In this document: in pieces, positions 44,046 through 60,389 of the stretch | How positions within the stretch are numbered: position 1 is the first letter of the stretch | How the letters are laid out: each line of letters opens with the position of its first letter | DNA from: Planctomycetia bacterium | GTDB taxonomy: Bacteria; Planctomycetota; Phycisphaerae; Phycisphaerales; SM1A02 | DNA length: 64,000 bases | Assembly: GCA_005776885.1 (NCBI GenBank) | Contig: SXOD01000019.1 | Location: 33,577 to 97,576 of the forward strand | Reading direction: 5' to 3' | The notes under the pieces: model-generated | Seen by the model: only the letters and a program-made list of their open reading frames with translations | Database searches by the model: none | What the model was told of the DNA's origin: nothing | Program-made: the position numbers and the translations under genes

Positions 44046-45704
44046 ATGTCGACCACGCCACGCATTCTGAGTCTCGCTTCCCTGCTCACTTTTTCAACCG
44101 CCGCCCTTTCTCACGCTGGCGGAGGGATCACACTCCAACCCAAGGCCGGCGCCCCGCTGCAGGGACTGACCGCCGACGAGTTGGCCCTCTTCGAGACCGG
44201 GAAGATCCTGTTTGCCACACCACCGACCATCGAGCAAGGTCTCGGGCCCATCTTCAACAAGTCCAACTGCCAATCGTGCCACTCGGTGCCGACTGGCGGA
44301 TGGGGATCCATCACCGTCACTCGATTCGGACTCGAGAAAAAGGGCGAGTTTGTTGAGTACCCCGGCGAGGTGCAGTCGCTCCTCCAGGCGGAAGCGATCA
44401 GCGAATCGTGCCGCGAGATCCTCCCGGCCGACGCGACGGTCGTGTCGCTGCGGGTCACGAACAGCTCCCTTGCGTTCGGCATCGTTGACGCGATCGCCGA
44501 CGCGGACATCATCGCCAACGGCGATCCGACCGACGCCGATGGCGACGGCATCTCCGGCAAGGTCCACTATGTGGATGTGCTGGAAGACCCCACCGGCGGG
44601 CTCCGCCCGGGCCGCTTTGGCTGGAAGGCTCAGGTCGCCACGCTCTTCTCCTTCTCGGGCGATGCCACGCGAAATGAGATGGGCTTCACCAACTCCCTGG
44701 TGCCCTCTGAAAATCCACCCAACGGCGATTACGCCCTGCTTGCCCAGTGCGACGTGGCCTCGGATCCCGAGGATGTCCCGGATGCGGCCGGATTCACCTT
44801 CATCGAGCGCGTCACGCACTTCCAGCGCTTCCTCGGAATGCCGCCCCAGACGCCGAAAGTTGGCATGACCGGCGAGGCGATCTTCAATCAGGTCGGCTGT
44901 GCCAAGTGCCACATCCGCGACTGGCAGACGCCCAACGATCCCAGCCTGGCCGAGGCGCTGCGCGGCCAGAACGCCAAGATCTACAGCGACTTCCTCCTGC
45001 ACGACATGGGAACCCTGGCGGACGGCATCCAGCAGGGTGACGCGAATGAGTTTGAGTTCCGCACGCCGGTCCTCTGGAACCTGGCCACCCGTGATCCCAT
45101 GCTCCACGACGGCCGCGTGGCTGGCGGGACCTTTGCTGAGCGAGTGACCGCCGTGATCGTCGCGCACGGGCCATTCGGCGAAGGCGCCGCGTCGGCGGCC
45201 GCCTTCTCCGCGCTCAGCGAGGGCGAAAAGGGACAGTTGGTCTCGTTCTTGCGGTCGCTCGGTCGGCTTGAGTTTGATGCCGACTTCTCCGGGGTGATCG
45301 ACATCGTGGACTTCTATTCCTTCTGGTCCTGCGCGAACATTGCCATCGCGCCGGATGATGAATGCGCCGTCCATGACATCAACGCCAGTGGATCCTTGGA
45401 ACCCGACGACCTTTCCATGTTCCTGCAGGCCTGGGGCGGACCAGCGGATGACTGCGATGCCAATTCCTTCCCGGACGCCATCGACATCGCGCTTGATGCC
45501 TCGCTGGACTCCAACGGCGATGGCATCCTGGACAGTTGCTCCACCTGCCCCGCCGACCTGGACGGCAACGGCTCCGTGGATGGCTCCGACCTGGCCACGC
45601 TCCTCAGCGGCTGGGGTGGCTCCGACGCGGACATCGACGGGAGCGGAACGGTCGACGGCCAGGATCTTGCCCAAATGCTCTCCGCTTGGGGCCCCTGCGC
45701 CTGA
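44046..45704 (+). CDS. DUF1111-type di-haem oxidoreductase with a C-terminal dockerin-like module
   Basis: 552 aa. Signal peptide; two CXXCH motifs (CQSCH, CAKCH). FNKSNCQSCHSVP, GRFGWKAQ and FLLHDMG are typical of the di-haem DUF1111/COG3488 family. The last 52 aa are CPADLDGNGSVDGSDLATLLSGWG..DIDGSGTVDGQDLAQMLSAWGPCA. Confidence 0.85.
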   Translation: MSTTPRILSLASLLTFSTAALSHAGGGITLQPKAGAPLQGLTADELALFETGKILFATPPTIEQGLGPIFNKSNCQSCHSVPTGGWGSITVTRFGLEKKGEFVEYPGEVQSLLQAEAISESCREILPADATVVSLRVTNSSLAFGIVDAIADADIIANGDPTDADGDGISGKVHYVDVLEDPTGGLRPGRFGWKAQVATLFSFSGDATRNEMGFTNSLVPSENPPNGDYALLAQCDVASDPEDVPDAAGFTFIERVTHFQRFLGMPPQTPKVGMTGEAIFNQVGCAKCHIRDWQTPNDPSLAEALRGQNAKIYSDFLLHDMGTLADGIQQGDANEFEFRTPVLWNLATRDPMLHDGRVAGGTFAERVTAVIVAHGPFGEGAASAAAFSALSEGEKGQLVSFLRSLGRLEFDADFSGVIDIVDFYSFWSCANIAIAPDDECAVHDINASGSLEPDDLSMFLQAWGGPADDCDANSFPDAIDIALDASLDSNGDGILDSCSTCPADLDGNGSVDGSDLATLLSGWGGSDADIDGSGTVDGQDLAQMLSAWGPCA

Positions 45705-45789: not shown

Positions 45790-48300
45790 ATGATCCGAAC
45801 CACCACCGTCTCTGCCATGTTCGTCGCCGCCCTGGCCGTTGGCTCCACCGCCTTCGGTCAGTGGGTGACGCTCGCCAACGAATCCGCCAGCCGCCTCAGT
45901 CCGGCTTCGCTCCAGAACGCCGACAATCTGGAGAAGGACTTCACCTTCGGTGACTGGGACCACGATGGCGACATCGATCTTGTCATGATGAAGAAGTTCC
46001 CCGGATCCATCCAGGGCGGCTTCCCCGATGTGCTCCTCATGAACGAGGGCGGCGTGCTGGTGGATCGCACCGTGGCGCTGGCGACCGCGTCTGATTACGC
46101 GGGGTCGCAGGGATTCTTGGACAACACCAACGACCGCGATGTCAAGGCCGTCGATGTTGACTTGGACGGCTGGCTGGACTTGGTGACCTGCACCACGATG
46201 TCCGACGGATTGCAGCAGTACATCGGCCAGCCGCGCGTGTACATGAACCGTGGCGACGATGCGCAGGGCAACTGGCTTGGCTTCCGATTCGAGGACAACC
46301 GCATTCCGACCATGTTCGCGGCCAACGGAACCGCGGCCAATCCGAGGTTCTGCGAGTTCGCCTTCGGCGACCTCACCGGTGACGGCTATCCCGACCTCTT
46401 CTTCGCCGACTACGACACGCCCGAGACGAGCGGGACCGTCTGCATCGACCTCAACGGCGACGGCGACACCAACGACGCAGGCGAGTGCCAGCAGTCGCCC
46501 GGCGAGACTTCCTCCAACGACTACCAGAACAAGTTGCTGATCAACCAGGGCGCCGCCAATCCCGGGTACTTCACCGACAGCACGACGACGCGTGCCACGT
46601 CAGCGCAGCTCGCCGCAGGCTTTGGCAATGCCGCCGAGATCGCGGACATGAATGGCGACGGGCTGCTGGACATCATCCGGACCAACACGCTCACGGGTGG
46701 GCAGGCCACCGGGTTCCTCTACAACACCAACTCCGGCGGCGGCCCTGGGAATGCCTTCTCCGGGCCGCATGACCTGATCACCGGCACGCCGTACGAGTTC
46801 GCGGTCAGCGACCTCAATGGCGACGGCCGCCTGGACATCGTGGACGCCAACGACGGCGTCGACAAGTACTGGATCAACACCAGCACGCAGGCCAATGGCC
46901 AGATCACGATGACCTCGTACAGCTTGACCGGCGCCCTCAGCGAGTTTGGCAACGCGATTCACTGCGACGACCTCGACAGGGATGGCCGGCCAGACTGCAT
47001 CATTGTTGATGTGGACGCCGACTTGCCCTCCTTCTGCCCCACCACGGGCCGCCGCACGCACATCTATCACAACAAGCCGGTCACGACTTCCGGCATGCTG
47101 GTGGAGGAAGGCAATGTCATCGCCAACAGCGCTCTTGCCGCATGGTTCGATGTCGCGATCGTTGACCTCAACGGTGACGGGTGGCTGGATGTGGTGTCCG
47201 GCGCCTGCTCGGGCGTTCGTGTGTGGATGAACCAGCCGCCGCTCAGCCTGGCGTTCTCTTTCCCCGCGGGTGTTCCCTCCACCGTCGAGCCCAACACGCC
47301 GGTTGCCGTGGAAGTCACCGCGGCCATCGCCGGCGGCGGCACGCTCCTGAACGCACAGCAGCACACTCGCATCAACCATGGCGCGTGGTCGGGGGCTCCC
47401 CTGGTTTCCACCGGCGGGAACAACTACCGCGCCACGCTCCCAGCCGTTTCGTGCGGCGATGAACTCGATTTCTATGTCTCCGGACAACTCTCCAACGGCG
47501 GTTCCACGGTCTACGTCGCACCAGTCGGCGGGGCCAACAGCCCCTACACCTTCAGTGTCTCGACTGGGACGGAGACGATCTTCGCGACTGACTTCGAGGC
47601 GGGCGACGCGGGCTTCACCGTCACCAACGACCCGTCGCTGAGCGTCGGCGCGTGGGCACGCGCTGACCCCAACGGCACGGTGACCACCGGTGGCGCGACG
47701 GCAGAGCCCTACGACGATCACACGGCTGCGGGAACGCAGTGCTTCGTGACCTACCCAGCTGCGGCGGGCAGCACCTCAGGCGCGAGCGACGTGGACCTCG
47801 GGCCGACCTATCTCACCTCTGCGCCGATCGCGAATGGTGGCGGCGACGCACTCGTGTCGTACTGGTCGTGGATTTTCTGCGACGACGCGGCAATCCCCTC
47901 GTCGGCTGACTCACTGCTCACCCAGGTGTCCATCGACGGCGGCGCTTGGGTGACTGTCCAGAGCATGACCGGCTCCGGCGGATGGACCGAGCGATCTTTC
48001 CTGCTGTCCGCCGGAGGCACGCCAGGACAATCGTTCCGGCTGCGCTTCGTGATCGGCGACAACCCGAACGATTCCGTCACGGAAGCCGCTCTCGATGACA
48101 TTTCGGTCTCGCAAGTCCAGTGCGACGCCGGCACTCCGTGCCCCGCCGACCTCACAGGCGATGGAGTCATTGACGGCGCCGACCTTGGCGGCGTCTTGGC
48201 AGGCTGGGGCACCGCCGGCGGCGACATCGACGGCGATGGCGCGACGGACGGGTCCGACCTGGCGGCACTCCTGAGCATCTTCGGCAGCGCCTGCCCGTAA
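45790..48300 (+). CDS. FG-GAP/VCBS repeat protein with a C-terminal dockerin-like module
   Basis: 836 aa. Signal peptide; repeats are GDWDHDGDIDLVM, VDVDLDGWLDLVT, GDLTGDGYPDLFF, ADMNGDGLLDIIR, SDLNGDGRLDIVD, DDLDRDGRPDCII and VDLNGDGWLDVVS. The last 53 aa are CPADLTGDGVIDGADLGGVLAGWG..DIDGDGATDGSDLAALLSIFGSACP. Confidence 0.8.
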   Translation: MIRTTTVSAMFVAALAVGSTAFGQWVTLANESASRLSPASLQNADNLEKDFTFGDWDHDGDIDLVMMKKFPGSIQGGFPDVLLMNEGGVLVDRTVALATASDYAGSQGFLDNTNDRDVKAVDVDLDGWLDLVTCTTMSDGLQQYIGQPRVYMNRGDDAQGNWLGFRFEDNRIPTMFAANGTAANPRFCEFAFGDLTGDGYPDLFFADYDTPETSGTVCIDLNGDGDTNDAGECQQSPGETSSNDYQNKLLINQGAANPGYFTDSTTTRATSAQLAAGFGNAAEIADMNGDGLLDIIRTNTLTGGQATGFLYNTNSGGGPGNAFSGPHDLITGTPYEFAVSDLNGDGRLDIVDANDGVDKYWINTSTQANGQITMTSYSLTGALSEFGNAIHCDDLDRDGRPDCIIVDVDADLPSFCPTTGRRTHIYHNKPVTTSGMLVEEGNVIANSALAAWFDVAIVDLNGDGWLDVVSGACSGVRVWMNQPPLSLAFSFPAGVPSTVEPNTPVAVEVTAAIAGGGTLLNAQQHTRINHGAWSGAPLVSTGGNNYRATLPAVSCGDELDFYVSGQLSNGGSTVYVAPVGGANSPYTFSVSTGTETIFATDFEAGDAGFTVTNDPSLSVGAWARADPNGTVTTGGATAEPYDDHTAAGTQCFVTYPAAAGSTSGASDVDLGPTYLTSAPIANGGGDALVSYWSWIFCDDAAIPSSADSLLTQVSIDGGAWVTVQSMTGSGGWTERSFLLSAGGTPGQSFRLRFVIGDNPNDSVTEAALDDISVSQVQCDAGTPCPADLTGDGVIDGADLGGVLAGWGTAGGDIDGDGATDGSDLAALLSIFGSACP

Positions 48301-48340
48301 GGGCCTCCTGCGGCCTCCGGAGCGTCGCGAGCCTCCAGAG

Positions 48341-48439
48341 TTCCTGAGGTTCCTGAGGTGCCTGAGGTGCCTGAGGTTCCTGAGGTGCCTGAGGTTCCTG
48401 AGGTTCCTAAGGTTCCTGAGGTTCCTGAGGTTCCTGAGC
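48341..48439. repeat. Tandem 9-bp repeat, 11 head-to-tail copies (TTCCTGAGG / TGCCTGAGG)
   Basis: Read directly: units start at 48341, 48350, 48359 ... 48431. Variants are T/G at position 2, one A in copy 8 and a C at the end of copy 11. The array starts 40 nt after the FG-GAP gene stop. Confidence 0.95.
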
Positions 48440-48453
48440 AGAACTCGCGCCGC

Positions 48454-48640
48454 ACGTCGGCGCGGAAACGGACTTCGTTTCAGACGTCGACGCGGAATCG
48501 GACTTCGTTTCAGGCGTTGGCGCGGAAACGGACTTCGTTTCAGGCGTTGGCGCGGAAACGGACTTCGTTTCGGACGTTGGCGCGGAATCGGACTTCGTTT
48601 CGCACGTTGGCGCGGAAACGGACTTCCGAAGTCCGGTTCC
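48454..48640. repeat. Tandem 30-bp repeat, about 6 copies (ACGTTGGCGCGGAAACGGACTTCGTTTCGG-like)
   Basis: Units start at 48454, 48484, 48514, 48544, 48574 and 48604, with a few substitutions. Each carries a small inverted repeat, GAAACG-gactt-CGTTTC. The last unit degenerates into a longer hairpin. Confidence 0.95.
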
Positions 48641-48666
48641 GTGCAAAGGTCCGGCAGGAGGCCGGA
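48613..48666. terminator. Two hairpins between convergent genes (possible bidirectional terminator region)
   Basis: CGGAAACGGACTTC/GAAGTCCGGTTCCG is a 14-bp stem with one mismatch (48613-48641). TCCGGC-aggag-GCCGGA lies at 48650-48666. Neither has a clear U-tract, so the terminator role is tentative. Confidence 0.3.
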
Positions 48667-48693
48667 TTGGGCGAGTTCTCGCTTGCGTGCGTC

Positions 48694-50568
48694 TCAGTCT
48701 TGGACGACGGTGAGCGCGACGGTCGACGGCACCCGGGCGGGGATGGGGATCGACTGCTCCTTCCCATCCGGCCACTGGAGCGTGAGTGACTGCAGTGACT
48801 CGCCCGGAGCCAGGACAAGGCGCGCCACGGGCTCGCTGCTGGAGAGGTAGCCGCGGTGGGGCGCGATCGTCCGACGCCGCTTCGAACCGTCAGAGAGCAC
48901 GGCGGTGACCGTTGCGCCGAGGCCCTGGCGATTGCCTTTGGGACCCTCGGCCCGAAGCGTGATGATTTGCCCACCCACGGGGATGCCCGCAGATCCAAGG
49001 ATGACTTCGACGGGCCCGGCGTTGGATGTGAACACGAAATCGATGGCGCCGTCTGCGTTGAGGTCGCCTGACGCCAAACCGCGCCCGACACGCTTCGCGC
49101 CAATCGGGCCGTGCGCATCGGGTTCGGCAAGCTGGAACATCCCCATTCCCGGCGCCTGAAGCAACACCTGACCGGGCTGCCGGAACTCCTGCCCGGCCTG
49201 GACCGCACTGATCTCTGGTTCCAAGTGGCCGTTGGACTGGACCAGATCCAGCGAGCCGTCCTGATTGACATCTTCCAAGAGAAGGCCAAATGTCAGCACG
49301 CGACGGGTCGGGACGCCAACGCCGCAGAGTATGGCGTCATCGGTGAACTGGAGGCGGCCGGAGGGCGAGGTGTAGAACGAATCGGGCTCGTTGGCAAAGT
49401 TCCCGATGGCGATGGCCAGCTTGCCTGAGCGCGCCGGCCCGCCCTGGGAATCGGCTCGCTCGTCCACGATGATCGCAGAATCGATGCCCATGGCCCCGGT
49501 CGCCGCACCCATCTTGTCGAATGCCAGCCCGGTTGCGACGCCGGACTCCACGAACTTCCCTTGTCCATCATTGACGAAGACGAAGTTGGCCACCGTGTCA
49601 TTGGCGAGCACAACGTCCAGGTCACCGTCGCCATCGATGTCCCGGGCAATGGCGCCAAGCGTCTTCCCGACGGGAACCCCCGTGGCGCGGTTGCGGACGA
49701 TGAATCCGGCCCCGGCGGTGTCGTCCACAAATGTGCCATCAGCCTGCTGTCGGTAGAAGATCGGGTCCGCCCCTTCGAATCCGGTTGGGGGGCCATAGGA
49801 ACGCCCCACACCGGTGAGCGTGTAGCCGACACTTCGGTCGATCTCGGGGCTCCAACTGACGTATTGGGCGGCAAGGAGGTCCAGGTCTCCGTCTCGGTCG
49901 GCGTCGAACCAGACTGCGGCGGTGCCCCAGCCTGGTTCGGTGGTCAATCCTCGCGCGGAGGTGACGTCTTCAAACGCCATCGCGCCACCAGGCGGTGTGG
50001 TGTTGCGCAACAGGAGGTGGCCCGGCGTGTTGGGTGTCTTGACGCCGGTGACATAGAGGTCTGTTCGATCGTCTCCATCGACGTCGACTGCGTACACCCC
50101 CATCGCGTAGATCGGCCGGTTCGCCAGCGGGACCGTTTCAAAACGCGCATCCGCGGCATCGGGCCCTGCGGATGAGCGAAGGATGCGCAGGCCCGTGGTA
50201 CCTGGGGAAGGTGCGCTCGCAAAGGAATCTCCCGACCAGTTCAGCCCGTCCGCGAGGACGATGTCCAAGGCCCCGTCGTTGTCCAGGTCGGCGATCGCGG
50301 CGCCGCCGCCAAGCGTCTCGGGGAGGAGGCGCTCACCGCGAGCTCCGTTGGTGTGCGACCACGCGGGGAGCGCCGAGACCGACTTGAAGGCAGGCTGCTG
50401 GATGGTCGCGTCCTTCGGCTTGGAAGGAACGACCTCCGGCTTGTCGATGGGCTTCGGCGCGGGGCGTGAGAACCACCAGAACCCTGCGATCACCGCAGCG
50501 ATCGCCACACCGCCAAGGACCATACGGGTGGACGAGGACGATGCGGCCACACCTTGCTGCTCAGTCAT
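48694..50568 (-). CDS. CRTAC1-family protein (N-terminal TM anchor, FG-GAP/VCBS repeats, ASPIC/UnbV domain)
   Basis: 624 aa. TM helix VLGGVAIAAVIAGFWWF. Repeats are ADLDNDGALDIVL, VDVDGDDRTDLYV, FDADRDGDLDLLA, RDIDGDGDLDVVL, EDVNQDGSLDLVQ and GDLNADGAIDFVF. The C-terminus has GLGATVTAV...RRRTIAPHRGYLSSSEPV. The start overlaps the cytochrome gene stop by 8 nt. Confidence 0.85.
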   Translation of the reverse strand: MTEQQGVAASSSSTRMVLGGVAIAAVIAGFWWFSRPAPKPIDKPEVVPSKPKDATIQQPAFKSVSALPAWSHTNGARGERLLPETLGGGAAIADLDNDGALDIVLADGLNWSGDSFASAPSPGTTGLRILRSSAGPDAADARFETVPLANRPIYAMGVYAVDVDGDDRTDLYVTGVKTPNTPGHLLLRNTTPPGGAMAFEDVTSARGLTTEPGWGTAAVWFDADRDGDLDLLAAQYVSWSPEIDRSVGYTLTGVGRSYGPPTGFEGADPIFYRQQADGTFVDDTAGAGFIVRNRATGVPVGKTLGAIARDIDGDGDLDVVLANDTVANFVFVNDGQGKFVESGVATGLAFDKMGAATGAMGIDSAIIVDERADSQGGPARSGKLAIAIGNFANEPDSFYTSPSGRLQFTDDAILCGVGVPTRRVLTFGLLLEDVNQDGSLDLVQSNGHLEPEISAVQAGQEFRQPGQVLLQAPGMGMFQLAEPDAHGPIGAKRVGRGLASGDLNADGAIDFVFTSNAGPVEVILGSAGIPVGGQIITLRAEGPKGNRQGLGATVTAVLSDGSKRRRTIAPHRGYLSSSEPVARLVLAPGESLQSLTLQWPDGKEQSIPIPARVPSTVALTVVQD

Positions 50569-53356
50569 TCGAACTCACCTTGTCAAACGCACTCTCGCGC
50601 TGGAGGTCATAGATCACGATGGCTTCCGCGGCGGCGTTGGCCGCGGCGTCTTTCTCGCGCGCCAGGCGCAGCGCACGGTCCGCCGCGTTGTCGTCGGGCT
50701 TGTAGCGGAGGTACTGCGACTGGGCCTTGCCCTCAAGGGCAGCATCGCCTTGCGCAGCAGCCAACTGCATGCGGAGGTACCACGCTCGGATGTTTTCCGG
50801 ATCCAGCGCAAGCGCCTCGGTCACGGCGTCCTGCGCGGTAACCATCAGCGCGCCGGAAGCGGTTGGGTCGGCGGACTCCGCTTGCCGCGCCAACTCGAAT
50901 CGAACTTCAGCCAGTGCCAGCCACACTCGCTCATCCCTTGAGAAATCAAACTGCCGCTCCTTCGCCATCGGCCAGGGCGTGGCCAGCACGGTCTCGAAGC
51001 CCTTGGCGGCCTCAGCGAGCGCGCCGCGTTCCCGGTTGATGCGAGCCACCCAGTACTCGTGCATCCAAGGGAAGGCGGGCATCGTGCCCTCGCCAGCGCG
51101 GGCGAATGCTTCGGCAGCTTCATCGATGCGTCCTTCGACGAGGAACGCGCGACCGCGAGCGGCGGCGCCCAAGCCGCCCTGCAGTTCCTCGACCTTGGTG
51201 AAGCACAATTGTGCCAGCCGCAGGTTGCCCTTGGTCATGCCACCCTGTTGGCGCATCGACGCGATGCCGTAGTCGTACCAGCGCTGCCAGAGCGGGATCG
51301 CGGACTCCTGCGCCGCAATCTTCGCGACAGCATCGTTGCCGTCGCGCGGCGCCACGGGGAAAGTCACGCTGTCGGTGGCCAGCACCAGGATCGGCAGGTC
51401 CATCACGATGGGCTTTCCCGCGACGGCCTCCGTGTAGACATGCGTGAACTTCCGGTACTTCATCGTCGCGGTCACGGTCACCGTGGGGCCGGCGTCGTCT
51501 GGCACGACGAAGGAGTAGTGCGTCAGGTCAGCCGCGCCCGGCGGGATCTGGTGGTTGTAGAGCGCCGTGAAGATGTCCTGCACATTGCGAAGGACGATGT
51601 GGTTGCCGTCTCGGTCAACGATGTAGGCATTGAGGAACTTGGACCAAGGATCAACGGCGCCAACCTGATCCATGCCGCCGCTGAGGCCAATGCGCTTCCC
51701 GCCCGAGGTGAGTTCCACCTCGATCCAGGTCTCGTTGCTGTCCGCAGTCCCCTGCGTGAACATGTGCCCCATCTTGAGGGTGCGCATGAGGACATCGACC
51801 AGATACTCCTGCCCACGCTTGAGTGAGGGCACTTCGGGGCGCAGTGGCGCGATAGGCTCGACTTCCACGCTGGTCCCCTCCCGGAGCGCGATGATGTCCG
51901 CTCGGAAGACGCCCTTGTTGAACTCCTCGGCGTTGTCCAGCACTTCCTGCTTGCAGGGCAGGTCCAGGTACGCGGCGATGGCCGGGTTCCCCGACGGGAA
52001 GGCGTGCGACGGGATCTTGAGCTGGCCCGAGTCATCCAGGCGGTCCGCGCCCAGGTCAGCACTCGCCATCGTCGGCATGTGGCAGCCGTTGCAGTTGAGT
52101 TGGGCCGTCGGTGGGTAGTACCACGACTCGATGCCGTTGCCCGAGACCCCGCTGGTCCGCCAGGCGTCGTAGTGGTCCTGCCCCCGCAGCCACTTGTAGT
52201 GCGTGAGTTCTTCGGGAATGAAGACCTTGTGGCACGATGCACAGAACTCCGCGCTCTTGTGGATTTCTGGCTTGAGGAACGACCGCTTGTGGAACGATGG
52301 CCTCGCCTTGATGAGCGAGTGGTTGATCCACTTCAGCATCGCGTTGTCGGACCCCTGGAACGGGTACGGCTTTGGGGCCTCAAAGATGTATCCGCCGTTG
52401 CCCTCCACGCCGTCGAGGCCCACGATGCCGTGGCAGGCGGTGCAGGTGAGCGAGGCCTTCCCCAGCGGGTCTGAGGCCACGTCGTAGGAGGGATCGTCCC
52501 ACTTCTCCAGCTCAAAGGCGCCCGTGAGGAACGGCACGGGGTCGTGGCAACCCGCGCAGAACCGAGAACCATGCACATTGCCGTCGCGCTCGAACATCGC
52601 CTTGCGGGTGTTTCGGACGGAGAAGGCATAGAAAGGATTGTTGAACGAACTGAAGTTGTGGACGCTCTGCTCGTGCGTCTTGACGGAGTCTTCGTGGCAG
52701 GCGATGCACTCTTCGTCGAAGGCGAAATCGGACAGGTCCGCCAGGTTGCCGGTGCTGGTGCGCACGAGGCTGGGCTGGAAGTACTGCTCGCCGCCGACCG
52801 GTGGCCGACCCTTGCTGGCCATGACCGTGCCATGCCAGAGTCCGACCACGATGAATGCCGCGATCGCGGCGCCACCCCACTTGAGGCCGTCCTTCCAGTA
52901 GATCCGGCCAGCCTCCTTGCGGTGGAGGATGAAGAGAACGATCACCATCACCGGCGTGATGACATGCAGGGCGTAGTTGGCGATGCGCCACGCCGGGTCG
53001 GTCACGCCAAATCGAATGGACCCGACATCCACGCGAGTGAGGACGATGCCCGTGAGCAGCAGGATGATGGCCGTCGAAAAGAGCGCCAGCCCCAGGTTGC
53101 GCGCGCGGCGGTTTGGGTGCTCCCATGCCATCCGCATGTGGAGGATGCCAAATCCGATGACCGGGACCGTGATGACCAGGCCCAGGATCAGGTGCGCCAA
53201 GAACATCCACAGATAGAGACCGTCTTCGACATTCCGCTGGAGCACCTTCTCCGTGAGCGTCGTCCCCACCAAGTAGAGCGAGTTCACCAGGAGGAGTGCG
53301 AAGAGCCCCGCGATCACGAGGTAGGTCTTCTTCAGGCGCGGGGTGACGACTTCCAT
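50561..53356 (-). CDS. Membrane-anchored pentahaem c-type cytochrome with a C-terminal TPR domain
   Basis: 931 aa. Five N-terminal TM helices; five CXXCH motifs (CIACH, CAGCH, CTACH, CASCH, CNGCH); a C-terminal TPR-like region (ARGRAFLVEGRIDEAAEAFARA...WLALAEVRFELARQ...AWYLRMQLAAAQGD). Confidence 0.85.
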   Translation of the reverse strand: MEVVTPRLKKTYLVIAGLFALLLVNSLYLVGTTLTEKVLQRNVEDGLYLWMFLAHLILGLVITVPVIGFGILHMRMAWEHPNRRARNLGLALFSTAIILLLTGIVLTRVDVGSIRFGVTDPAWRIANYALHVITPVMVIVLFILHRKEAGRIYWKDGLKWGGAAIAAFIVVGLWHGTVMASKGRPPVGGEQYFQPSLVRTSTGNLADLSDFAFDEECIACHEDSVKTHEQSVHNFSSFNNPFYAFSVRNTRKAMFERDGNVHGSRFCAGCHDPVPFLTGAFELEKWDDPSYDVASDPLGKASLTCTACHGIVGLDGVEGNGGYIFEAPKPYPFQGSDNAMLKWINHSLIKARPSFHKRSFLKPEIHKSAEFCASCHKVFIPEELTHYKWLRGQDHYDAWRTSGVSGNGIESWYYPPTAQLNCNGCHMPTMASADLGADRLDDSGQLKIPSHAFPSGNPAIAAYLDLPCKQEVLDNAEEFNKGVFRADIIALREGTSVEVEPIAPLRPEVPSLKRGQEYLVDVLMRTLKMGHMFTQGTADSNETWIEVELTSGGKRIGLSGGMDQVGAVDPWSKFLNAYIVDRDGNHIVLRNVQDIFTALYNHQIPPGAADLTHYSFVVPDDAGPTVTVTATMKYRKFTHVYTEAVAGKPIVMDLPILVLATDSVTFPVAPRDGNDAVAKIAAQESAIPLWQRWYDYGIASMRQQGGMTKGNLRLAQLCFTKVEELQGGLGAAARGRAFLVEGRIDEAAEAFARAGEGTMPAFPWMHEYWVARINRERGALAEAAKGFETVLATPWPMAKERQFDFSRDERVWLALAEVRFELARQAESADPTASGALMVTAQDAVTEALALDPENIRAWYLRMQLAAAQGDAALEGKAQSQYLRYKPDDNAADRALRLAREKDAAANAAAEAIVIYDLQRESAFDKVSSND

Positions 53357-53382
53357 GGTTGCATCCTATCGGCGATTGAGAC

Positions 53383-56300
53383 TCAGTCGCTTTCGAGTCC
53401 GTCACCCGGGCGACGGGTGTTGAAGAGGTCGTGCAAGGCGCGAGCCGTGGGGCTGAGCGAAGTTCCATCGCGGGTCGGGAGTGGCTCGAGCGTGGCGCCG
53501 GCCCCCGTAAATCGATCCATGTCCTTGCACCAGCCGTTGAGTTCCAGGATCCAATGTCGGGAGGCTCCTACGCTGGGAGCTGAATCTTGCGGCGGCTCAA
53601 ATCGAAGCCGCACTTCTTCTCCGGGCCCAAAGATTGCGCAGGCATCATCGATGCCCGAGAGCAGCGGCGTGCAGTCGCCGAACGCCGTGTACTGGCCGGC
53701 CTGCGACCGTGTGTCCCACAGCGGAGCGCGCCGCGAGTAGTCGAAGTGCGGGCGCTTCTGGGGGAGCGTGGTGCGGGCGGGGAAGCCGCATTCGTGGACG
53801 CCTCCTGAGAGCAGCACACTCTCGCGGCGAACCGCATCTGGGCACCGTTCAACGCCCACACAGCGAACGCGGTCGATGTACAGCTCCACGGTCGTCGTCA
53901 GGCGAAGCGTTGTGGCGCCTGCGGGAAGGAGGGACGCGTCCAGCGGGAACGCTGCAAGCCGAGGCATGCCGGCCGGATAGCCGTACTGCTCTTGGAGCAT
54001 GACCCACTCGCCAGTCGCCGGATCAAGCGCCTCAATGGTGGGAGCTTCGGGTGAGATCCCCTCCTGCCACATGGCGAAGTTGGTCTGGCCATACGGGTAC
54101 TCCACCCAGCCGTCCATGAGGAGGACGGGGGCCCCGGGGAGTTGGTCGAGCGGGCGGTCGAACGCAAGCGTCAGCACCAGCGGCGACGAGAGGAGACCAA
54201 TGTGGCGAGGGTGTTGGGGTGGGCCGATTGCGGCGAGGCCGTCCGCACTGGCCAGCGCGACAGTTGCATCACCGTGCCCGGCCACGGTCGCAGCTCGCAG
54301 GCTGGCCACCGAGCCATCACGCCAGAAGATCGGCTCTCCCGTCGCTGGCGGACCGAGGACCGCAAGCCGTTCATCGACCCCCATGTTCCAGCCTGAAGGA
54401 ATGTCGAAGGCGACCAGCCGCGCGGCATCGAGGCAGCACGATTCTTCCATTGGTTCGCCAAGCCGGATCTCAATGGCGCCTTCGCGTGGGACGACAGCCG
54501 ACGCAGGAAGCAGCACGCCCTCGCGCGGCGTCGGCGGCGCATACTGCGGCAGAAGTCCGTGTGGCGTGCACTCCACGCCGGTCAGGTACCCGATGCCGCC
54601 AACACCGAGACAATCCGTCACGAACTGAAACTGCTCACCGTCCCACCCGAAGATGACCGGGCACGATGACACCTGCCGCTGTGTCTCCACGATTCCGGTG
54701 TGGCCAGGCTTGAGATCAAGCTCTGTCTGAAAGAGTGCGTCGGGCCAATCCAGCCGAATGAAGTCCGCCCGGGGCCGACCGGCGAGGCCCACCGCTTCCG
54801 GCTGCACGCCCTGCGCGCCAGCACTGGAGTGCGGCAACACGCTTCCCTGCGACCATGCTGCGCCATTGCGGATCGCGTAGGCCGTGCCGACGCCAGACGC
54901 ATTGGATCGCATGCTCTGCGACGGGTCCACTCGACCACTGAGCGTGAACGAAGCGAACGGCAAACGGCCGCGACCCGGAAGGCATGCCGCAAGCCGGACG
55001 GGACTGGCGTGGCCGCCCTGAGCCGTGTCCAACGCACCGATCAGGGTTGGGCCACGGTCATCTCGATTCACAAGCACATTCAGAAGCGCTAGCCCCTCGA
55101 ACTCCTGCACCAGCTGCCCTTCAAGGCTCCAGATCTTGGTGACACAATCCCGATCCCTCTGAGTGGCCACGAGCGCCGGGCGACCAGTGCCATCCACATC
55201 GACGACCGCCGCGTCAATGGAGTACCCGGGTGCATCGAGCAACACTCGAGGCGGGTTGAGTTCCCAGACCGTCACTCCACCGCCGGGCATCAGTCGGCGC
55301 ACCGTCACGCCGCACGTCTTCCCGGAGTCCGGGTGGACGAACGTGGTCGCGACAGGGCCATGCGTCCACGACTGGTCTTGAGCCCAGGACAGGAGGCCCT
55401 CGTTGCGCCAGAGTTGGCTCGCGCCAAATTCCTTGTTCAGGATGAGGTCGACATCGCCGTCTTGGTCGATGTCGCACAGCGTGGTGGAACGAGGTCCACT
55501 TGCTTGTGGGGCAAACTCCCCCGGCGCACCGGGCGCCGCTCCGCGAAGGACCGCCAGCGACTGGAAGGTCGCATCGCCAGCATTGATCCAGATGGACCAC
55601 CCATCCTTGGTCACCACCACCACATCCAGGTCGGCGTCGCCGTCCAGGTCCGCCAACTTGAGGTCCACGGGCTCGGCATTTCCAAGGTCAATGCCTCCCG
55701 CAAAGTCTTGCACACTCCACACCCCCTCCTTGGATTGCTGCGCCCATGCGGCGGCGCCCGAACGCAGCGCAAGGATGTCCGTTCGCGCATCCCCATTCAG
55801 GTCGCCAGCAGCTGAGACGCCATGCAACGCGATGAGTCCCTGGGTCGCCGCATCACTGTCTGGGACCGCACTCAACCCAGCGTCCGATCCAACGAGCACA
55901 TGCGTCACGGGAACAGGATCACCCTCCCGAACCCACGGTCGAGGGATCTGCAAGAGGTCAGTCCATGGGTCGCCATTGAGATCAACGGCCAGGGTCTGTG
56001 ACTCGAAGCCACCCTTCAATGGAACGCTCCCTCCGTCGATCAGGGCCGGGGGAAGAAACGGCTCCCCCTCCGGCTTGGTGACCGTGATCGCCTCCCGAGC
56101 GAGCGTCGCCATGGCGAGCGGACCCATCCTCGTGTACTTGAACTCGGCGAGATGAGCGCGGGGGTCGTTGGCGAGTTCCTCGAAGCGGGCGAGCAACCTC
56201 TCGCCCTCCGCAGTGTCCCCCGCCCGCATCGCACACCGGGAAAGCGCAAGCACGGCACTTCGCAGGAGCGGGTCCAGCTGCATCGCTCTCGCGTAATGCG

Positions 56301-56811
56301 GACGCGCCTGCTCCATCTCGCCAGCCATCTCGAAGGTCTGCCCGAGATAGAACGCGGCGAAGGCATCGTCGGGGCGCGACTTCACGGCACGCTCCAGCAC
56401 AACACGAGCGCTCTCCGGCTCGCCCAAGAACAAGTCGATAAGCCCGATGCAGTATGCGGCGCGGACGGCGATGTCGTCAGGTTCATCGCCCGCCGCCAGC
56501 GGAACCAGCATGGCTCGCGCACGCGATTGGCTGTCTTCATCGGAACCATTGAGCGTGGCGATGGCCAGATTGAGCGCGGCGAGTTGATCAGCCGGGTCGA
56601 TCGCCTGCGCCTCGGCAAACGCCTTGGCCGCACCCACGAAGTCGAACTGCCCCATGAGGCCCACGCCCCGATCCAGAGCGGCATTGAGTTCATCGCTTCG
56701 CTGGGACACGGCGGTGGGCGGCCGAGAGATCGTCCAGATCAGCGCCAGGCCAAGGACGAGCGCGCTCACCACGGTGAGGACTGCACCGCGATCGACGGCG
56801 CCTCGCTTCAC
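53383..56811 (-). CDS. Giant TPR plus FG-GAP/VCBS plus ASPIC/UnbV-like protein with a large conserved C-terminal extension
   Basis: 1142 aa. The GTG start overlaps the amidase stop (GTGA). It has an N-terminal TM helix (VLTVVSALVLGLALIW), a TPR block (aa about 40-220) and FG-GAP loops (DLNGDPWTDLLQ, GDLNGDARTDILA, ADLDGDADLDVVVV, CDIDQDGDVDLIL). An ASPIC-like segment follows, then about 400 aa more (SCPVIFGWDGEQFQFVTDCLGVGGIGYL...LLMDGWVEYPYGQTNF...ELNGWCKDMDRFTGAGATLEPLP). Confidence 0.8.
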   Translation of the reverse strand: MKRGAVDRGAVLTVVSALVLGLALIWTISRPPTAVSQRSDELNAALDRGVGLMGQFDFVGAAKAFAEAQAIDPADQLAALNLAIATLNGSDEDSQSRARAMLVPLAAGDEPDDIAVRAAYCIGLIDLFLGEPESARVVLERAVKSRPDDAFAAFYLGQTFEMAGEMEQARPHYARAMQLDPLLRSAVLALSRCAMRAGDTAEGERLLARFEELANDPRAHLAEFKYTRMGPLAMATLAREAITVTKPEGEPFLPPALIDGGSVPLKGGFESQTLAVDLNGDPWTDLLQIPRPWVREGDPVPVTHVLVGSDAGLSAVPDSDAATQGLIALHGVSAAGDLNGDARTDILALRSGAAAWAQQSKEGVWSVQDFAGGIDLGNAEPVDLKLADLDGDADLDVVVVTKDGWSIWINAGDATFQSLAVLRGAAPGAPGEFAPQASGPRSTTLCDIDQDGDVDLILNKEFGASQLWRNEGLLSWAQDQSWTHGPVATTFVHPDSGKTCGVTVRRLMPGGGVTVWELNPPRVLLDAPGYSIDAAVVDVDGTGRPALVATQRDRDCVTKIWSLEGQLVQEFEGLALLNVLVNRDDRGPTLIGALDTAQGGHASPVRLAACLPGRGRLPFASFTLSGRVDPSQSMRSNASGVGTAYAIRNGAAWSQGSVLPHSSAGAQGVQPEAVGLAGRPRADFIRLDWPDALFQTELDLKPGHTGIVETQRQVSSCPVIFGWDGEQFQFVTDCLGVGGIGYLTGVECTPHGLLPQYAPPTPREGVLLPASAVVPREGAIEIRLGEPMEESCCLDAARLVAFDIPSGWNMGVDERLAVLGPPATGEPIFWRDGSVASLRAATVAGHGDATVALASADGLAAIGPPQHPRHIGLLSSPLVLTLAFDRPLDQLPGAPVLLMDGWVEYPYGQTNFAMWQEGISPEAPTIEALDPATGEWVMLQEQYGYPAGMPRLAAFPLDASLLPAGATTLRLTTTVELYIDRVRCVGVERCPDAVRRESVLLSGGVHECGFPARTTLPQKRPHFDYSRRAPLWDTRSQAGQYTAFGDCTPLLSGIDDACAIFGPGEEVRLRFEPPQDSAPSVGASRHWILELNGWCKDMDRFTGAGATLEPLPTRDGTSLSPTARALHDLFNTRRPGDGLESD

Positions 56812-57818
56812 CGCGCTCCCCCACTCATGTGCCCCGCAACGAGAGCCGACTTCGCCGCGGCAATGCGCTCATCGTTGGAGGCAATGGTCGGCGGCAGAAC
56901 AGCGGGCTGGATGTACTCACGCGTCCCGTAGTGGTACGCCGACGAACGGTGGTGCGCGAGCATGTCGTGGCCGCGACGGCGTGCGCGCTCGGCCCGGAGT
57001 GCATCGATGTCAATGGGCGCGACAACGACTCGCTCGCCCTCCCCGGCGTCCGCCTGCGCCAGGATGCGACCATCAAAGTCCACCACCATGCTCGCGCCCG
57101 GCCACGAGAACGGGGGGTACTCCGACAGCTTGGCGCCTTGGTTCGCGGCCAACACAAACGCGGTGTTCTCAACGGCACGCGCCCGGTTCATGAGGGTCCA
57201 CCAGTCCATCGGAGCGGTGGCGCCCCAAGGGTCCATGTAGGCGCTCACGCGGATGAGGACCTCCGCGCCCGCAAACGCCATCTCACGAAGCGGCTCGGGG
57301 AAGAGCCAGTCGTAGCAGATGGCGCAGCCAAGCCGCCCAATCTCTGTTTCCACGACGGGAAAGAGAGGCTCCGAATACCCCTGCGCCAGCAAGTCGTGCG
57401 GGCTGGTGTTGACCTCCCACGGAATCCAGGGATTCACCTTGCGGTAGCGAGACAGCACGCCCGACGGCCCCACCAAGAGCGTGGTGTTGAAGACATGTCC
57501 CGGCCACTTGGGGTCGCGCTCGAGGAAGGTGCCCGTCTGGATGAAGCACCCGCGCTCGCGGCAAAAGGTTTCGTAGGCAGGCGCGATGTCCCCCGCCTCG
57601 ACAGCGTAGTGCTCCAGAAGTTCAGGCACGGTCAGCTTGATCGGAACCGCGTGCGCAAACTCAGGGAACGCAAAGAGTCGAATGTCGTGAAAGGGCTCGT
57701 ATCCAACGCGCGCACCATCGGCCATCGAAAGCATGCGAGCGATGCGCCCAGGAATCGCGTCACGATTGGCTGGGCACTCCATGGCCGTCTGGATCGCGGC
57801 GGCGTAGTAGCGCGGCAT
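56808..57818 (-). CDS. Carbon-nitrogen hydrolase (nitrilase superfamily; aliphatic amidase/formamidase-like)
   Basis: 336 aa. Putative Glu-Lys-Cys triad contexts are FAFPEF, RYRKVNPW and LGCAICYDWLFPE. Confidence 0.85.
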   Translation of the reverse strand: MPRYYAAAIQTAMECPANRDAIPGRIARMLSMADGARVGYEPFHDIRLFAFPEFAHAVPIKLTVPELLEHYAVEAGDIAPAYETFCRERGCFIQTGTFLERDPKWPGHVFNTTLLVGPSGVLSRYRKVNPWIPWEVNTSPHDLLAQGYSEPLFPVVETEIGRLGCAICYDWLFPEPLREMAFAGAEVLIRVSAYMDPWGATAPMDWWTLMNRARAVENTAFVLAANQGAKLSEYPPFSWPGASMVVDFDGRILAQADAGEGERVVVAPIDIDALRAERARRRGHDMLAHHRSSAYHYGTREYIQPAVLPPTIASNDERIAAAKSALVAGHMSGGAR

Positions 57819-58076
57819 GGGCGGAGGCTAGCGGAGGGGTACACAGGGGAACCGGGGGCGACCCCAGCCGTGGTAGGCGAGGCACGGCGCATTCGAAGTG
57901 GCGATTCGACAGGTAGAATGTTCGCATGGAACGCTCCTGTCGATCCCGCGATCACTGGCCGATTTCCATCCGACCACTCCATGATCCCGACCAGGACCGG
58001 CGCGACCGCGAGTATTGGCTGTCGCGCCCACCTCACGAGCGAATGGAGGCTTCCGACAGGCTTCGAGAGGAGCGAC

Positions 58077-60385: not shown

Positions 60386-60389
60386 GCCA

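Follow-up and report, generated by a model that had tools for sequence, protein, structure and literature searches.

What is the role of a membrane-bound multiheme cytochrome that is encoded next to proteins of the CRTAC1/ASPIC-UnbV family? The question is raised by a block of genes in a stretch of 64,000 nucleotides from a Planctomycetia bacterium, referred to here as the window. An earlier note on this DNA described the block as four minus-strand genes with almost no spacing, and suggested that it encodes a heme-based electron conduit bracketed by two propeller proteins. In the literature searched we found no biochemical role for bacterial members of the CRTAC1/ASPIC-UnbV family, and no published account of a pairing between a multiheme cytochrome and a CRTAC1-type protein. 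The pairing analysed below gives this family, which lacks an assigned function, a first consistent context, and that context is redox.

Organization of the gene cluster

ORF calling returned the four minus-strand genes with the same ends as in the earlier note:

56808..57818, minus strand: CN-hydrolase (nitrilase-superfamily amidase), 336 aa; first gene of module A
53383..56811, minus strand: giant TPR/FG-GAP protein, 1142 aa, GTG start; second gene of module A
50561..53356, minus strand: cytochrome, 931 aa; first gene of module B
48694..50568, minus strand: CRTAC1-type protein, 624 aa; second gene of module B

The junctions were also reproduced. The amidase and giant genes share a GTGA start/stop overlap, a 26-nt gap separates the giant gene from the cytochrome gene, and the stop of the cytochrome gene overlaps the start of the CRTAC1 gene by 8 nt (ATGACTGA). 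No terminator-like site was found on the minus strand within the block. Pfam searches bore out the proposed CN_hydrolase, TPR and FG-GAP content together with the UnbV_ASPIC domain of the 624-aa protein, but gave no significant UnbV_ASPIC match in the 1142-aa protein.

The block consists of two separable and conserved two-gene modules, with the amidase and giant protein forming module A and the cytochrome and CRTAC1 protein forming module B, which is the core. The amidase–giant pair also occurs without any cytochrome. Of 27 metagenome loci, 21 show the order amidase–giant gene, and in 12 of these 21 the cytochrome gene comes next; viewed from the cytochrome, the amidase–giant pair lies upstream in 19 of 53 loci, and the fused order of A and B is found in approximately one third. 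Because the amidase and giant protein are a conserved pair in their own right, and precede the cytochrome in no more than roughly one locus in three, the idea of a single conduit flanked by two propellers needs revision.

The earlier note gave a range from 48694 to 57818. The conserved cluster is larger than this and also includes:

44046..45704, plus strand: di-heme DHOR-family protein with a C-terminal EF-hand (Pfam DHOR, E 2.3e-35; EF-hand_6); convergent with the four-gene block; accessory
45790..48300, plus strand: FG-GAP protein, 836 aa (Pfam FG-GAP_3, E 7.5e-25); downstream of the DHOR gene; accessory
41262..43588, minus strand: second TPR→CRTAC1 pair from gene calls and Pfam, comprising a small TPR protein (42872-43588) and a CRTAC1-type protein (41262-42875) with a 4-nt overlap

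The DHOR and 836-aa FG-GAP genes each co-occur in 13 of 48 loci, the DHOR gene mostly in those that also contain the giant protein. DHOR is the only other recurring heme gene in the neighborhoods examined, and neither a porin gene nor a gene for a multiheme outer-membrane-type cytochrome was found among the called neighbors or recurrent ORF clusters of 83 loci. The CRTAC1-type protein of the second pair is 29% identical to the 624-aa protein. Within the window there are three cases of coupling between TPR and CRTAC1 modules, namely the fusion in the giant protein, the overlapping pair at 41262-43588, and the TPR-bearing cytochrome with its CRTAC1 neighbor.

Conservation of the cytochrome–CRTAC1 pair

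Of the 67 loci that could be evaluated, 62 have a CRTAC1 gene as the immediate downstream neighbor of the cytochrome gene, and the neighborhood is thus conserved beyond the source genome. The pair is found in at least five phyla: Planctomycetota, Verrucomicrobiota, Acidobacteriota, Proteobacteria (Gamma- and Betaproteobacteria) and Latescibacterota. The commonest overlap between the two genes is 4 nt, and a cytochrome relative of 30% identity has its CRTAC1 neighbor in inverted order, still overlapping. One divergent member of the cytochrome family has no CRTAC1 neighbor, and no cytochrome–CRTAC1 fusion was seen among nine long family members. The flanking genes all differ between phyla while the pair is kept; ferredoxin, RlmN-like and PLD genes are common to a few loci, and beyond the cluster genes listed above no further gene family recurs across phyla. 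Conservation on this scale places the arrangement far beyond chance.

The CRTAC1 proteins encoded beside the cytochrome are, by sequence comparison, a distinct orthologous subfamily, with 34–57% identity as against 27–32% for paralogues from the same loci. The 624-aa protein has an N-terminal anchor, an FG-GAP propeller (FG-GAP_3, E 8.1e-22) with DxDxDG calcium loops and a UnbV_ASPIC domain (E 8e-10; 38.9 bits against a cut-off of 23.4 bits), and it matches human CRTAC1 (PDB 9etn) with an E value of 2.8e-10. In the orthologues from cytochrome loci the DxDxDG aspartates are invariant, and neither a conserved cluster of Cys or His residues nor an obvious site for a cofactor was found.

Structure of the cytochrome

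The cytochrome belongs to a large family, with more than 3198 full-length homologues and 478 clusters of a 50%-identity library matching at E≤1e-30. An AF2 model (pLDDT 86.5, pTM 0.83) divides it as follows:

52823..53341, minus strand: five-helix membrane domain, residues 6-178 (AF2 helices)
51917..52801, minus strand: pentaheme c-type domain, residues 186-480 (CXXCH motifs, fold match)
51353..51907, minus strand: Ig-like beta-sandwich, residues 484-668 (strands in the AF2 model)
50630..51292, minus strand: C-terminal TPR solenoid, residues 689-909 (AF2 helices; Foldseek and PDB TPR matches)

N-terminal TM anchors had been proposed for all three large products. The giant and CRTAC1 proteins do carry them, but in the cytochrome the single anchor gives way to five predicted TM helices (residues 6-39, 46-77, 83-107, 121-149 and 154-178). 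Since positive charges cluster at the N-terminus, in the loop between helices 2 and 3 and in that between helices 4 and 5, the C-terminus is placed outside. The TPR solenoid is followed by a conserved tail (YKPDDNARD...AANHAAEAIVIYDL), and the TPR domain is retained in divergent members of the family.

To describe conservation we used 59 close homologues and a divergent set of 81 sequences, made up of the window cytochrome and 80 relatives with 23–46% identity. The five CXXCH motifs, at residues 217, 267, 305, 372 and 422, are invariant in the former and present in 80–81 of the latter, which upholds the identification of the protein as a cytochrome. With both the neighborhood and the heme motifs conserved, a functional link between the heme protein and the CRTAC1-type propeller is well supported.

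The membrane domain contains four histidines, His55 and His73 on TM2 and His131 and His145 on TM4, that are invariant in the 59 homologues and kept in 65–76 of the 81 divergent sequences. Their depths match, with H55 and H131 lying 9–10 residues from the outer ends of their helices and H73 and H145 lying 4 residues from the inner ends. On the predicted structure, these pairs probably hold two b-type hemes, one near each face of the membrane. In the periplasmic part the only universally conserved histidines outside the motifs are H233, H356, H451 and H531, the last of which is found in 81 of 81 sequences and forms part of a conserved loop of the Ig-like domain, G530-H531-x-F-T-Q-G-T-A-D-S-N541. 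As only four conserved extra histidines are available for five c-hemes, one of these hemes is probably special: four would have a conserved candidate distal histidine, and the fifth would be a reactive or specially ligated heme.

We searched with Foldseek using residues 1-690 of the AF2 model, so that a heme-free prediction is being compared with crystal structures. The top match was the pentaheme cytochrome c552 of Thermochromatium tepidum (5ZE8; E 4.6e-8), with a TM value of 0.58 normalised on the target and 506 aligned columns; this alignment to 5ZE8, which has 385 residues, probably extends into the Ig-like domain. A sequence-profile search gave weak matches to 5ze8 (E 2.3e-4) and MccSep (9wt8), and there were weak Pfam matches to MtrC/MtrF domains and cytochrome c554. 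MccSep has a heme cap and Ig-like domain with four bis-His hemes and one catalytic heme, the latter served by a loop of the Ig-like domain (bioRxiv 10.1101/2025.11.18.688581). By analogy, the conserved histidine loop of the window cytochrome is a candidate neighbor of the special heme. Membrane cytochromes were absent from the 50 Foldseek matches listed, and no cytochrome-b Pfam family matched the TM domain in the window protein or 14 relatives, the only hit being a weak one to DUF4405 (E 0.076).

The amidase and giant protein

The 336-aa amidase (CN_hydrolase, E 1.5e-33) has no signal peptide, and the closest solved structure is the formamidase 5g3o (E 5.6e-20). Assignment as a formamidase or aliphatic amidase equivalog was rejected, the protein being far below every NCBIfam equivalog cut-off (92.6 bits against 406 for formamidase, 60.8 against 427 for aliphatic amidase). 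All of 21 homologues keep residues E53, K127 and C168, which we read as the Glu-Lys-Cys triad of the nitrilase superfamily. Homologues of the amidase are 62–72% identical. Sequence comparison places the amidase in its own tightly conserved clade, the hallmark of which is the downstream giant TPR/FG-GAP gene. The puzzle of why an amidase is present has thus been answered in part, as far as its conserved partner and not its chemistry is concerned.

In the giant protein an N-terminal hydrophobic anchor is followed by TPR, a divergent FG-GAP propeller, a UnbV_ASPIC-like motif and a conserved C-terminal region:

about 56062-56694, minus strand: TPR block (Pfam TPR)
54952-56034, minus strand: divergent FG-GAP propeller (Pfam FG-GAP_3)
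53386-54951, minus strand: conserved C-terminal region, matching no family

Residues 621-1142 gave no Pfam match, leaving the last 440–520 residues or so unmatched. Most homologues of the giant protein carry PF07593, and a matching motif is found at about residues 626-696 of the 1142-aa protein. Conserved motifs include ETQRQxSSCPVIFxWDG, EPMEE, DGWVEYPYSQT, GYPAGMP and GWCKDMD. Sub-threshold matches to TPR_CcmH_CycH occur in the giant protein and in some members of the cytochrome family, and no specific kinship between the TPRs of the two proteins was found.

A proposed mechanism and its alternatives

On balance we consider it probable that module B is a membrane-to-periplasm redox module that includes a propeller, with module A as an accessory. 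The cytochrome would be anchored in the cytoplasmic membrane by its five TM helices, with the CRTAC1 protein as its dedicated partner. The two putative b-hemes would join the c552/MccSep-type pentaheme cap, which sits on the Ig-like domain in the periplasm, to the quinone pool or to the cytoplasmic side, while the TPR solenoid would be a likely docking surface for the membrane-anchored calcium propeller, which may either present an extracytoplasmic substrate to the hemes or exchange electrons with them. Module A would add a cytoplasmic CN-hydrolase and a giant anchored protein, often but not always encoded upstream and probably co-transcribed. Judged from the model, the cytochrome goes beyond a simple conduit: its polytopic membrane domain is joined to a pentaheme–Ig-like module of the c552/MccSep type, which is catalytic in MccSep. 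As for the propeller, we infer, as the earlier note did, that it could be a redox partner or substrate-capture module. It is possible, and is put forward here only tentatively, that the cytochrome and CRTAC1 protein form a physical, membrane-anchored periplasmic redox machine of an undescribed kind with seven hemes (two b and five c), in which the propeller is the substrate-binding or electron-accepting subunit and to whose pathway the amidase/giant module adds a second, optional stage. If true, this would be the first biochemical role for a family that reaches human cartilage acidic protein 1.

An alternative that we regard as unlikely has catalysis carried out by the cytochrome alone, as a membrane-tethered MccSep-like reductase or oxidase whose special heme would act on a small soluble substrate, while the propeller would share no more than its regulation, as a nonredox structural, adhesive or envelope-organizing partner. 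The fold match to the c552/MccSep family, with catalysis at one heme in MccSep, would fit this explanation, as would the four distal histidines for five hemes, the conserved Ig-like loop and the conservation in CRTAC1 orthologues of calcium loops but of no redox motif. However, the TPR domain is constant in the cytochrome family and the active-site Cys/Sec of MccSep is absent, and the adjacency across at least five phyla, the overlapping start and stop codons and the survival of the pair on inversion argue for stoichiometric co-production and a direct partnership of cytochrome and CRTAC1. Inherited synteny without joint function, which the survey largely refutes, is the least credible explanation: although synteny could by itself keep gene order in the related Planctomycetota that supply many of the loci, and a few loci also have the ferredoxin, RlmN-like and PLD flanks in common, the pair is kept with entirely different flanks in Verrucomicrobiota, Acidobacteriota, Gamma- and Betaproteobacteria and Latescibacterota, typically with start/stop overlaps, and persists inverted at 30% identity.

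The combination of conserved His pairs in a polytopic membrane domain with a multiheme domain in the periplasm, together with the weak MtrC/MtrF and c554 matches, could also suggest an inner-membrane quinol dehydrogenase, similar to CbcL or ImcH, that feeds extracellular electron transfer in mineral or electrode respiration. This is improbable given that DHOR is the sole recurring heme companion, with no recurring porin or outer-membrane-type multiheme cytochrome gene in the examined neighborhoods, and that, beyond the genes of the cluster, the comparison across phyla gave no other recurrent gene family. Also against it, the recorded hosts belong mostly to lineages known as aerobic heterotrophs: Phycisphaerae, Rhodopirellula, Singulisphaera, Lysobacterales and Verrucomicrobiota. 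We give similarly little credence to the TPR-cytochrome being a factor, outside metabolic electron transfer, that serves envelope FG-GAP/CRTAC1 proteins in maturation, quality control or redox sensing, much as the TPR-containing helpers CcmI and NrfG serve cytochrome biogenesis. The sub-threshold TPR_CcmH_CycH matches and the threefold coupling of TPR and CRTAC1 modules would be in keeping with such a factor, but the TPR matches are generic, five invariant heme sites and a polytopic membrane domain would be a heavy investment for a chaperone, and the CRTAC1 orthologues have no conserved cysteines needing redox handling. The redox module with a dedicated propeller is the explanation that we prefer.

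Comparison with known systems

The amidase shares the CN_hydrolase fold and triad positions with nitrilase-superfamily amidases such as AmiF and AmiE, and among solved structures formamidases come nearest to it. Geobacter CbcL and ImcH and the NapC/NirT/NrfH family are membrane quinol dehydrogenases in which multiheme c domains are fused or anchored. The cytochrome shares with them the logic of a membrane module joined to a periplasmic multiheme c domain, but differs in helix count and heme-domain fold, and we know of no counterpart in these systems to the TPR tail and CRTAC1 partner. Membership of the NapC/NirT/NrfH group, which has a single TM helix and a tetraheme domain, was rejected on the five TM helices, the five hemes and a Cytochrom_NNT match that is not significant (E 0.86). 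A porin–cytochrome extracellular conduit was rejected on the gene content of the cluster in the 83 loci, which includes no porin or outer-surface multiheme cytochrome.

A CRTAC1-family gene is also found between genes for HZS-alpha-like and HZS-beta-gamma-like heme proteins in non-anammox hydrazine-synthase-like clusters (PMC12758564). These resemble the window cluster in having a CRTAC1-type FG-GAP gene among periplasmic multiheme genes, and a CCP-like di-heme DHOR and FG-GAP propellers are present here too. PDB sequence searches, which covered the amidase, the giant protein, the cytochrome, its CRTAC1 partner and DHOR, returned no hydrazine-synthase chain, and the window cluster is of another type because its heme protein is a PHC-type membrane cytochrome. 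The 624-aa protein has the FG-GAP repeats, DxDxDG calcium loops and following UnbV_ASPIC domain of the CRTAC1/ASPIC-UnbV family (human CRTAC1, 9ETN), and differs in its N-terminal membrane anchor and in belonging to a subfamily that travels with the cytochrome gene.

The PHC fold family (c552, 5ZE8; Geobacter MccSep, 9WT8; cable-bacteria sPHC/lPHC; PtdA) is the best and only strong structural match of the cytochrome among the 50 Foldseek matches listed. Its alpha-helical cap with five CXXCH motifs, followed by an Ig-like beta-sandwich, is shared at approximately 14% sequence identity. MccSep is a polysulfide reductase with Cys as the distal ligand of heme 2 and a selenocysteine on the Ig-like loop. 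A Cys/Sec active site of this type was rejected for the window cytochrome, which has no conserved Cys outside CXXCH in the 59 or the 81 sequences and is encoded by a continuous ORF with no in-frame UGA. A likeness to MccSep lies in the four conserved candidate distal histidines for five hemes, a pattern consistent with four bis-His hemes and one special heme. The matched c552/MccSep chains have 385–450 residues and are described as heme cap and Ig-like domain only; unlike these, the window cytochrome has a five-helix membrane domain with four conserved histidines, a TPR solenoid and a dedicated CRTAC1 partner gene.

The four-gene block

Our comparison shows that a membrane-anchored pentahaem cytochrome of the PHC type, carrying a TPR tail, is co-inherited with a dedicated CRTAC1-type calcium propeller, and that the start and stop codons of the two genes usually overlap. 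In the window this pair belongs to a block of four minus-strand genes, which stands within a wider cluster.

Genes of the block and of the wider conserved cluster
41262-43588, minus strand: second pair, small TPR protein then CRTAC1-type protein, with a 4-nt start/stop overlap
44046-48300, plus strand: DHOR-family di-haem protein with a C-terminal EF-hand, then an 836-aa FG-GAP protein; convergent with the four-gene block
48694-50568, minus strand: CRTAC1-type protein, 624 aa (Pfam FG-GAP_3 and UnbV_ASPIC)
50561-53356, minus strand: cytochrome, 931 aa, with five CXXCH motifs at residues 217, 267, 305, 372 and 422
53383-56811, minus strand: giant protein, 1142 aa, GTG start (Pfam TPR and FG-GAP_3)
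56808-57818, minus strand: amidase, 336 aa (Pfam CN_hydrolase, E 1.5e-33)

The four ORFs of the block lie where the earlier note had placed them, and the three junctions it described are borne out: a GTGA overlap between amidase and giant protein, a 26-nt spacer between giant protein and cytochrome, and an 8-nt overlap, ATGACTGA, between cytochrome and CRTAC1-type gene. The domain assignments that it proposed checking against Pfam agree gene by gene with one exception. The giant had been called a TPR/FG-GAP/ASPIC protein; its TPR and FG-GAP parts are assigned directly, while UnbV_ASPIC is recognised only from its homologues and from a motif near residues 626-696. The limits of the block (48694-57818) also stand, although the conserved cluster extends further, to the plus-strand DHOR and FG-GAP genes and the second TPR and CRTAC1 pair on the minus strand. 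A terminator scan found no minus-strand terminator-like site within the block, which is weak evidence since such scans are uninformative for a GC-rich organism. The same holds for a sigma-70 promoter scan, which gave no match, and Rfam has no match in 40000-60000.

A dedicated CRTAC1 partner for the cytochrome

A one-genome-per-species scan returned at least 580 relatives of the cytochrome. Analysis covered 80 loci, spread over Planctomycetota, Verrucomicrobiota, Acidobacteriota, Gamma- and Betaproteobacteria and Latescibacterota. Most of the hosts are MAGs obtained from lake, marine and soil metagenomes, and the cytochrome-CRTAC1 pair is carried by the cultured Rhodopirellula maiorica SM1 and R. 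europaea 6C. The neighbourhood is conserved outside this genome: by tblastn, a CRTAC1-type gene lies directly downstream of the cytochrome and on the same strand in 62 of the 67 loci with enough sequence, and anywhere downstream in 65 of them. The commonest start/stop overlap is 4 nt.

CRTAC1 proteins adjacent to the cytochrome are 34-57% identical to that of the window, against 27-32% for other CRTAC1 paralogues in the same loci, so the partner of the cytochrome is a dedicated orthologous CRTAC1 subfamily. At locus L171 of another genome, where the cytochrome is 30% identical, the genes run TPR, CRTAC1, cytochrome, and the second and third overlap by 4 nt; the association therefore survives rearrangement. 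One other divergent cytochrome is without a CRTAC1 neighbour. All-against-all ORF clustering of 83 loci yielded only the cluster genes listed here, shadow ORFs and local synteny, with no further recurrent partner outside locally related genomes, and none of nine unusually long members of the family is a cytochrome-CRTAC1 fusion. A functional link between haem protein and propeller is strongly indicated.

Architecture of the cytochrome

The cytochrome has more than 3198 full-length homologues (about 48% identity), and a search with its residues 1-690 against a representative library clustered at 50% identity gives 2294 matching clusters at E<=1e-3, of which 478 reach E<=1e-30. Annotation of the homologues goes no further than "multiheme c-type cytochrome", "tetratricopeptide repeat protein" or hypothetical. 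Conservation of the CXXCH motifs in orthologues had been set beforehand as a refutation test of the cytochrome assignment; all five are invariant in 59 of 59 homologues and are kept in 80-81 of the 81 sequences of a divergent set, which comprises the window cytochrome and 80 relatives of 23-46% identity. The AF2 model of the full protein (pLDDT 86.5, pTM 0.83) has five TM helices instead of the N-terminal TM anchor that had been described.

Domains of the cytochrome in the AF2 model
Residues 6-39, 46-77, 83-107, 121-149 and 154-178: five TM helices
Residues ~189-480: helical haem domain
Residues 484-668: beta-sandwich (Ig-like domain)
Residues 689-909: TPR solenoid

Positive charges, as read from the sequence, are concentrated in the N-terminus, in loop 2-3 and in loop 4-5, a pattern that places the N-terminus inside and puts the haem domain on the periplasmic side. 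Two histidines on TM2 (H55 and H73) and two on TM4 (H131 and H145) are invariant in close homologues, and H55, H73, H131 and H145 are kept in 76, 65, 76 and 68 of the 81 divergent sequences respectively. In the model the periplasmic helix ends are 9-10 residues away from H55 and H131, the cytoplasmic ends 4 residues from H73 and H145, and an invariant proline, P65, stands between H55 and H73 on TM2. This geometry is that expected of two membrane-spanning bis-His b-haems. No cytochrome-b Pfam family matches the TM domain in any of 15 members (the window protein and 14 relatives), and the sole Pfam match is DUF4405 at E 0.076. The binding of b-haem by the membrane domain is therefore best treated as a hypothesis, one that we consider somewhat probable.

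Foldseek with the whole model finds TPR proteins only. We therefore re-predicted residues 1-690 (model pLDDT 81) to expose the haem core, and this predicted model gives one strong match, 5ZE8, the pentahaem cytochrome c552 of Thermochromatium tepidum (E 4.6e-8, TM 0.58 on target, 506 aligned columns). By sequence, the family profile reaches both 5ze8 (E 2.3e-4) and 9wt8 (E 2.7e-3), the Geobacter polysulfide reductase MccSep; a single-sequence search of the PDB with the haem and Ig-like region gave no meaningful match. Outside the CXXCH motifs, the only histidines of the periplasmic part that are universally conserved in the divergent set are H233, H356, H451 and H531, while H366 and H395 are not conserved. 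H531 belongs to a loop that is conserved in the Ig-like domain and reads G-H-x-F-[TP]-Q-G-T-x-D. By analogy with MccSep, we infer four bis-His c-haems and one special haem, possibly near the H531 loop.

A CcsBA-like cytochrome-c assembly pair was considered as a feature of the family and rejected, since tblastn finds it in one genome only. There, in a Planctomycetota MAG (locus L086, 5540-9993), an 862-aa protein and a 617-aa Cytochrom_C_asm (CcsA-like) protein are encoded directly upstream of the cytochrome, an arrangement seen in no other locus.

The amidase, the giant protein and the fusion of two modules

The amidase belongs to a clade whose members are 62-72% identical, with invariant E53, K127 and C168, which we read as the Glu-Lys-Cys catalytic triad. 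Its score falls far short of the equivalog cut-offs for formamidase and for aliphatic amidase, and it lacks a signal peptide. Its coupling to the block had been left unexplained; the coupling itself stands, and its conserved partner is the giant protein.

By tblastn the giant lies directly upstream of the cytochrome in 19 of 53 loci, and 15 of 48 cytochrome loci have the amidase. Aquisphaera insulae and a 7.6-Mb genome have the amidase followed by a TPR/FG-GAP/UnbV_ASPIC protein of about 1250 aa, with neither a cytochrome nor a CRTAC1 gene after the pair, and in a Wenzhouxiangellaceae MAG the amidase and giant genes overlap by 4 nt. In a metagenome scan that started from the amidase, 27 loci had 5 kb or more of downstream sequence. 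In 21 of these the amidase is followed by the giant gene, and a cytochrome follows the giant in 12, all within the 14 whose giant is at least 42% identical to that of the window; it never follows the giant paralogues of 31-33% identity. This survey makes the window a recurrent fusion of two modules, amidase with giant and cytochrome with CRTAC1, and this replaces the earlier picture of a haem conduit bracketed by two propellers.

At two loci from other genomes, L087 (9507-14948) and L089 (9127-14826), a small TPR gene lies directly upstream of the amidase, overlapping it by 4 nt in L087, and the pair is without the cytochrome; this suggests a TPR-amidase-giant three-gene unit where the cytochrome is absent.

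The C-terminal region of the giant (residues 621-1142; 53386-54951, minus strand) contains several conserved cysteines and the strongly conserved motifs ETQRQxSSCPVIFxWDG, EPMEE, DGWVEYPYSQT, GYPAGMP and GWCKDMD. The last ~440-520 residues of the giant have no Pfam match, and the C-terminal region of about 520 residues matches no family in Pfam or NCBIfam. Other proteins encoded near cytochrome or amidase genes have regions that resemble it, with 27-33% identity.

The wider cluster and its flanks

The CRTAC1 protein of the second pair is 29% identical to the 624-aa CRTAC1-type protein, and the same TPR-to-CRTAC1 pairing occurs in L171 and in another compared locus, L085. The DHOR and FG-GAP genes are found in 13 of 48 loci (tblastn), for the most part in those that also have the giant, and in L085 they are rearranged; the DHOR protein is linked only weakly to di-haem peroxidases.

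Between the convergent FG-GAP and CRTAC1 genes, a spacer of 393 nt at 48301-48693 holds two tandem arrays, at 48340-48438 and 48454-48626: a 9-nt unit, GTTCCTGAG, repeated 11 times, and a 30-nt unit repeated 5.8 times with a GAAACG/CGTTTC hairpin in every unit. On the minus strand the stop codon of the CRTAC1 gene has a strong hairpin, CGGACTTCGGAAGTCCG, directly 3' of it. These repeats and the hairpin could be terminators or REP-like elements; the repeats have no Rfam match. Upstream of the block are a methyladenine glycosylase gene (58557-59174, plus strand) and an AAA_14/DUF4143 ATPase gene (59171-60403, minus strand), neither conserved with the cluster.

A possible mechanism and its significance

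Two putative b-haems would carry electrons between the haems of the periplasm and either the quinone pool or the cytoplasmic side, and one c-haem may be reactive. The TPR domain of the cytochrome might dock the CRTAC1 propeller, which once docked could bind substrate or exchange electrons. TPR occurs with CRTAC1 three times in the window: fused in the giant, as the pair at 41262-43588, and as the TPR-bearing cytochrome with its CRTAC1 neighbour. Such recurrence would fit a general theme of TPR-propeller pairing. We rejected a common CRTAC1-binding module shared by the cytochrome and the giant, as their TPR domains are not specifically related (E 2.2).

The earlier interpretation, in which propeller proteins serve an extracytoplasmic electron-transfer complex as redox partners or substrate-capture modules, is partly supported overall. 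Every component is of a known kind: the cytochrome has the PHC fold, the propeller is of the CRTAC1 type, the amidase belongs to the nitrilase superfamily, and the others are TPR domains. The novelty lies in the architecture, a membrane domain with a PHC core and a TPR tail, and in the conserved partnership. That the cytochrome and its CRTAC1 partner make up a distinct, undescribed redox machine we think rather unlikely. In the literature searched we found no paper describing either the cytochrome-TPR/CRTAC1 pair or the amidase/giant pair. The co-inheritance of a dedicated CRTAC1 subfamily with a membrane multihaem cytochrome provides a concrete hypothesis, and this is testable in cultured bacteria because R. 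europaea 6C and R. maiorica SM1 carry the pair. Should the module turn out to oxidise or reduce a compound outside the cytoplasm, it could represent a redox activity that is widespread in the environment and has escaped notice.

Comparison with known systems

Bacterial genomes commonly encode CRTAC1/ASPIC-UnbV proteins, and animals have them too. In the literature searched we found no biochemical function for the bacterial members, and searches for CRTAC1, UnbV, ASPIC or FG-GAP together with multihaem, pentahaem or TPR found only a paper on hydrazine-synthase homologues. This 2025 study places CRTAC1-family genes between hydrazine-synthase-like multihaem genes in non-anammox bacteria (PMC12758564), which makes it another and distinct instance of CRTAC1 accompanying periplasmic haem proteins. 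The PDB sequence searches that we ran, with the cytochrome, giant, CRTAC1, amidase and DHOR proteins, yielded no hydrazine-synthase chain.

The c552/MccSep pentahaem fold family has one member recently shown to be an enzyme. Cytochrome c552 belongs to a pentahaem family with Geobacter ExtKL, cable-bacteria PHCs and PtdA (PMC11976967; bioRxiv 10.1101/2023.11.21.568154). In the polysulfide reductase MccSep, an alpha-helical cap with five haems sits on a stem that is Ig-like; haems 1, 3, 4 and 5 are bis-His and haem 2 is the active site, reached by a loop of the Ig-like domain. The MccSep preprint itself draws the comparison with c552 (bioRxiv 10.1101/2025.11.18.688581). Unlike MccSep, the window cytochrome is without the Cys/Sec active site, since no cysteine outside the CXXCH motifs is conserved in its family. 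Within the c552/MccSep fold family it represents a membrane-integrated, TPR-bearing branch.
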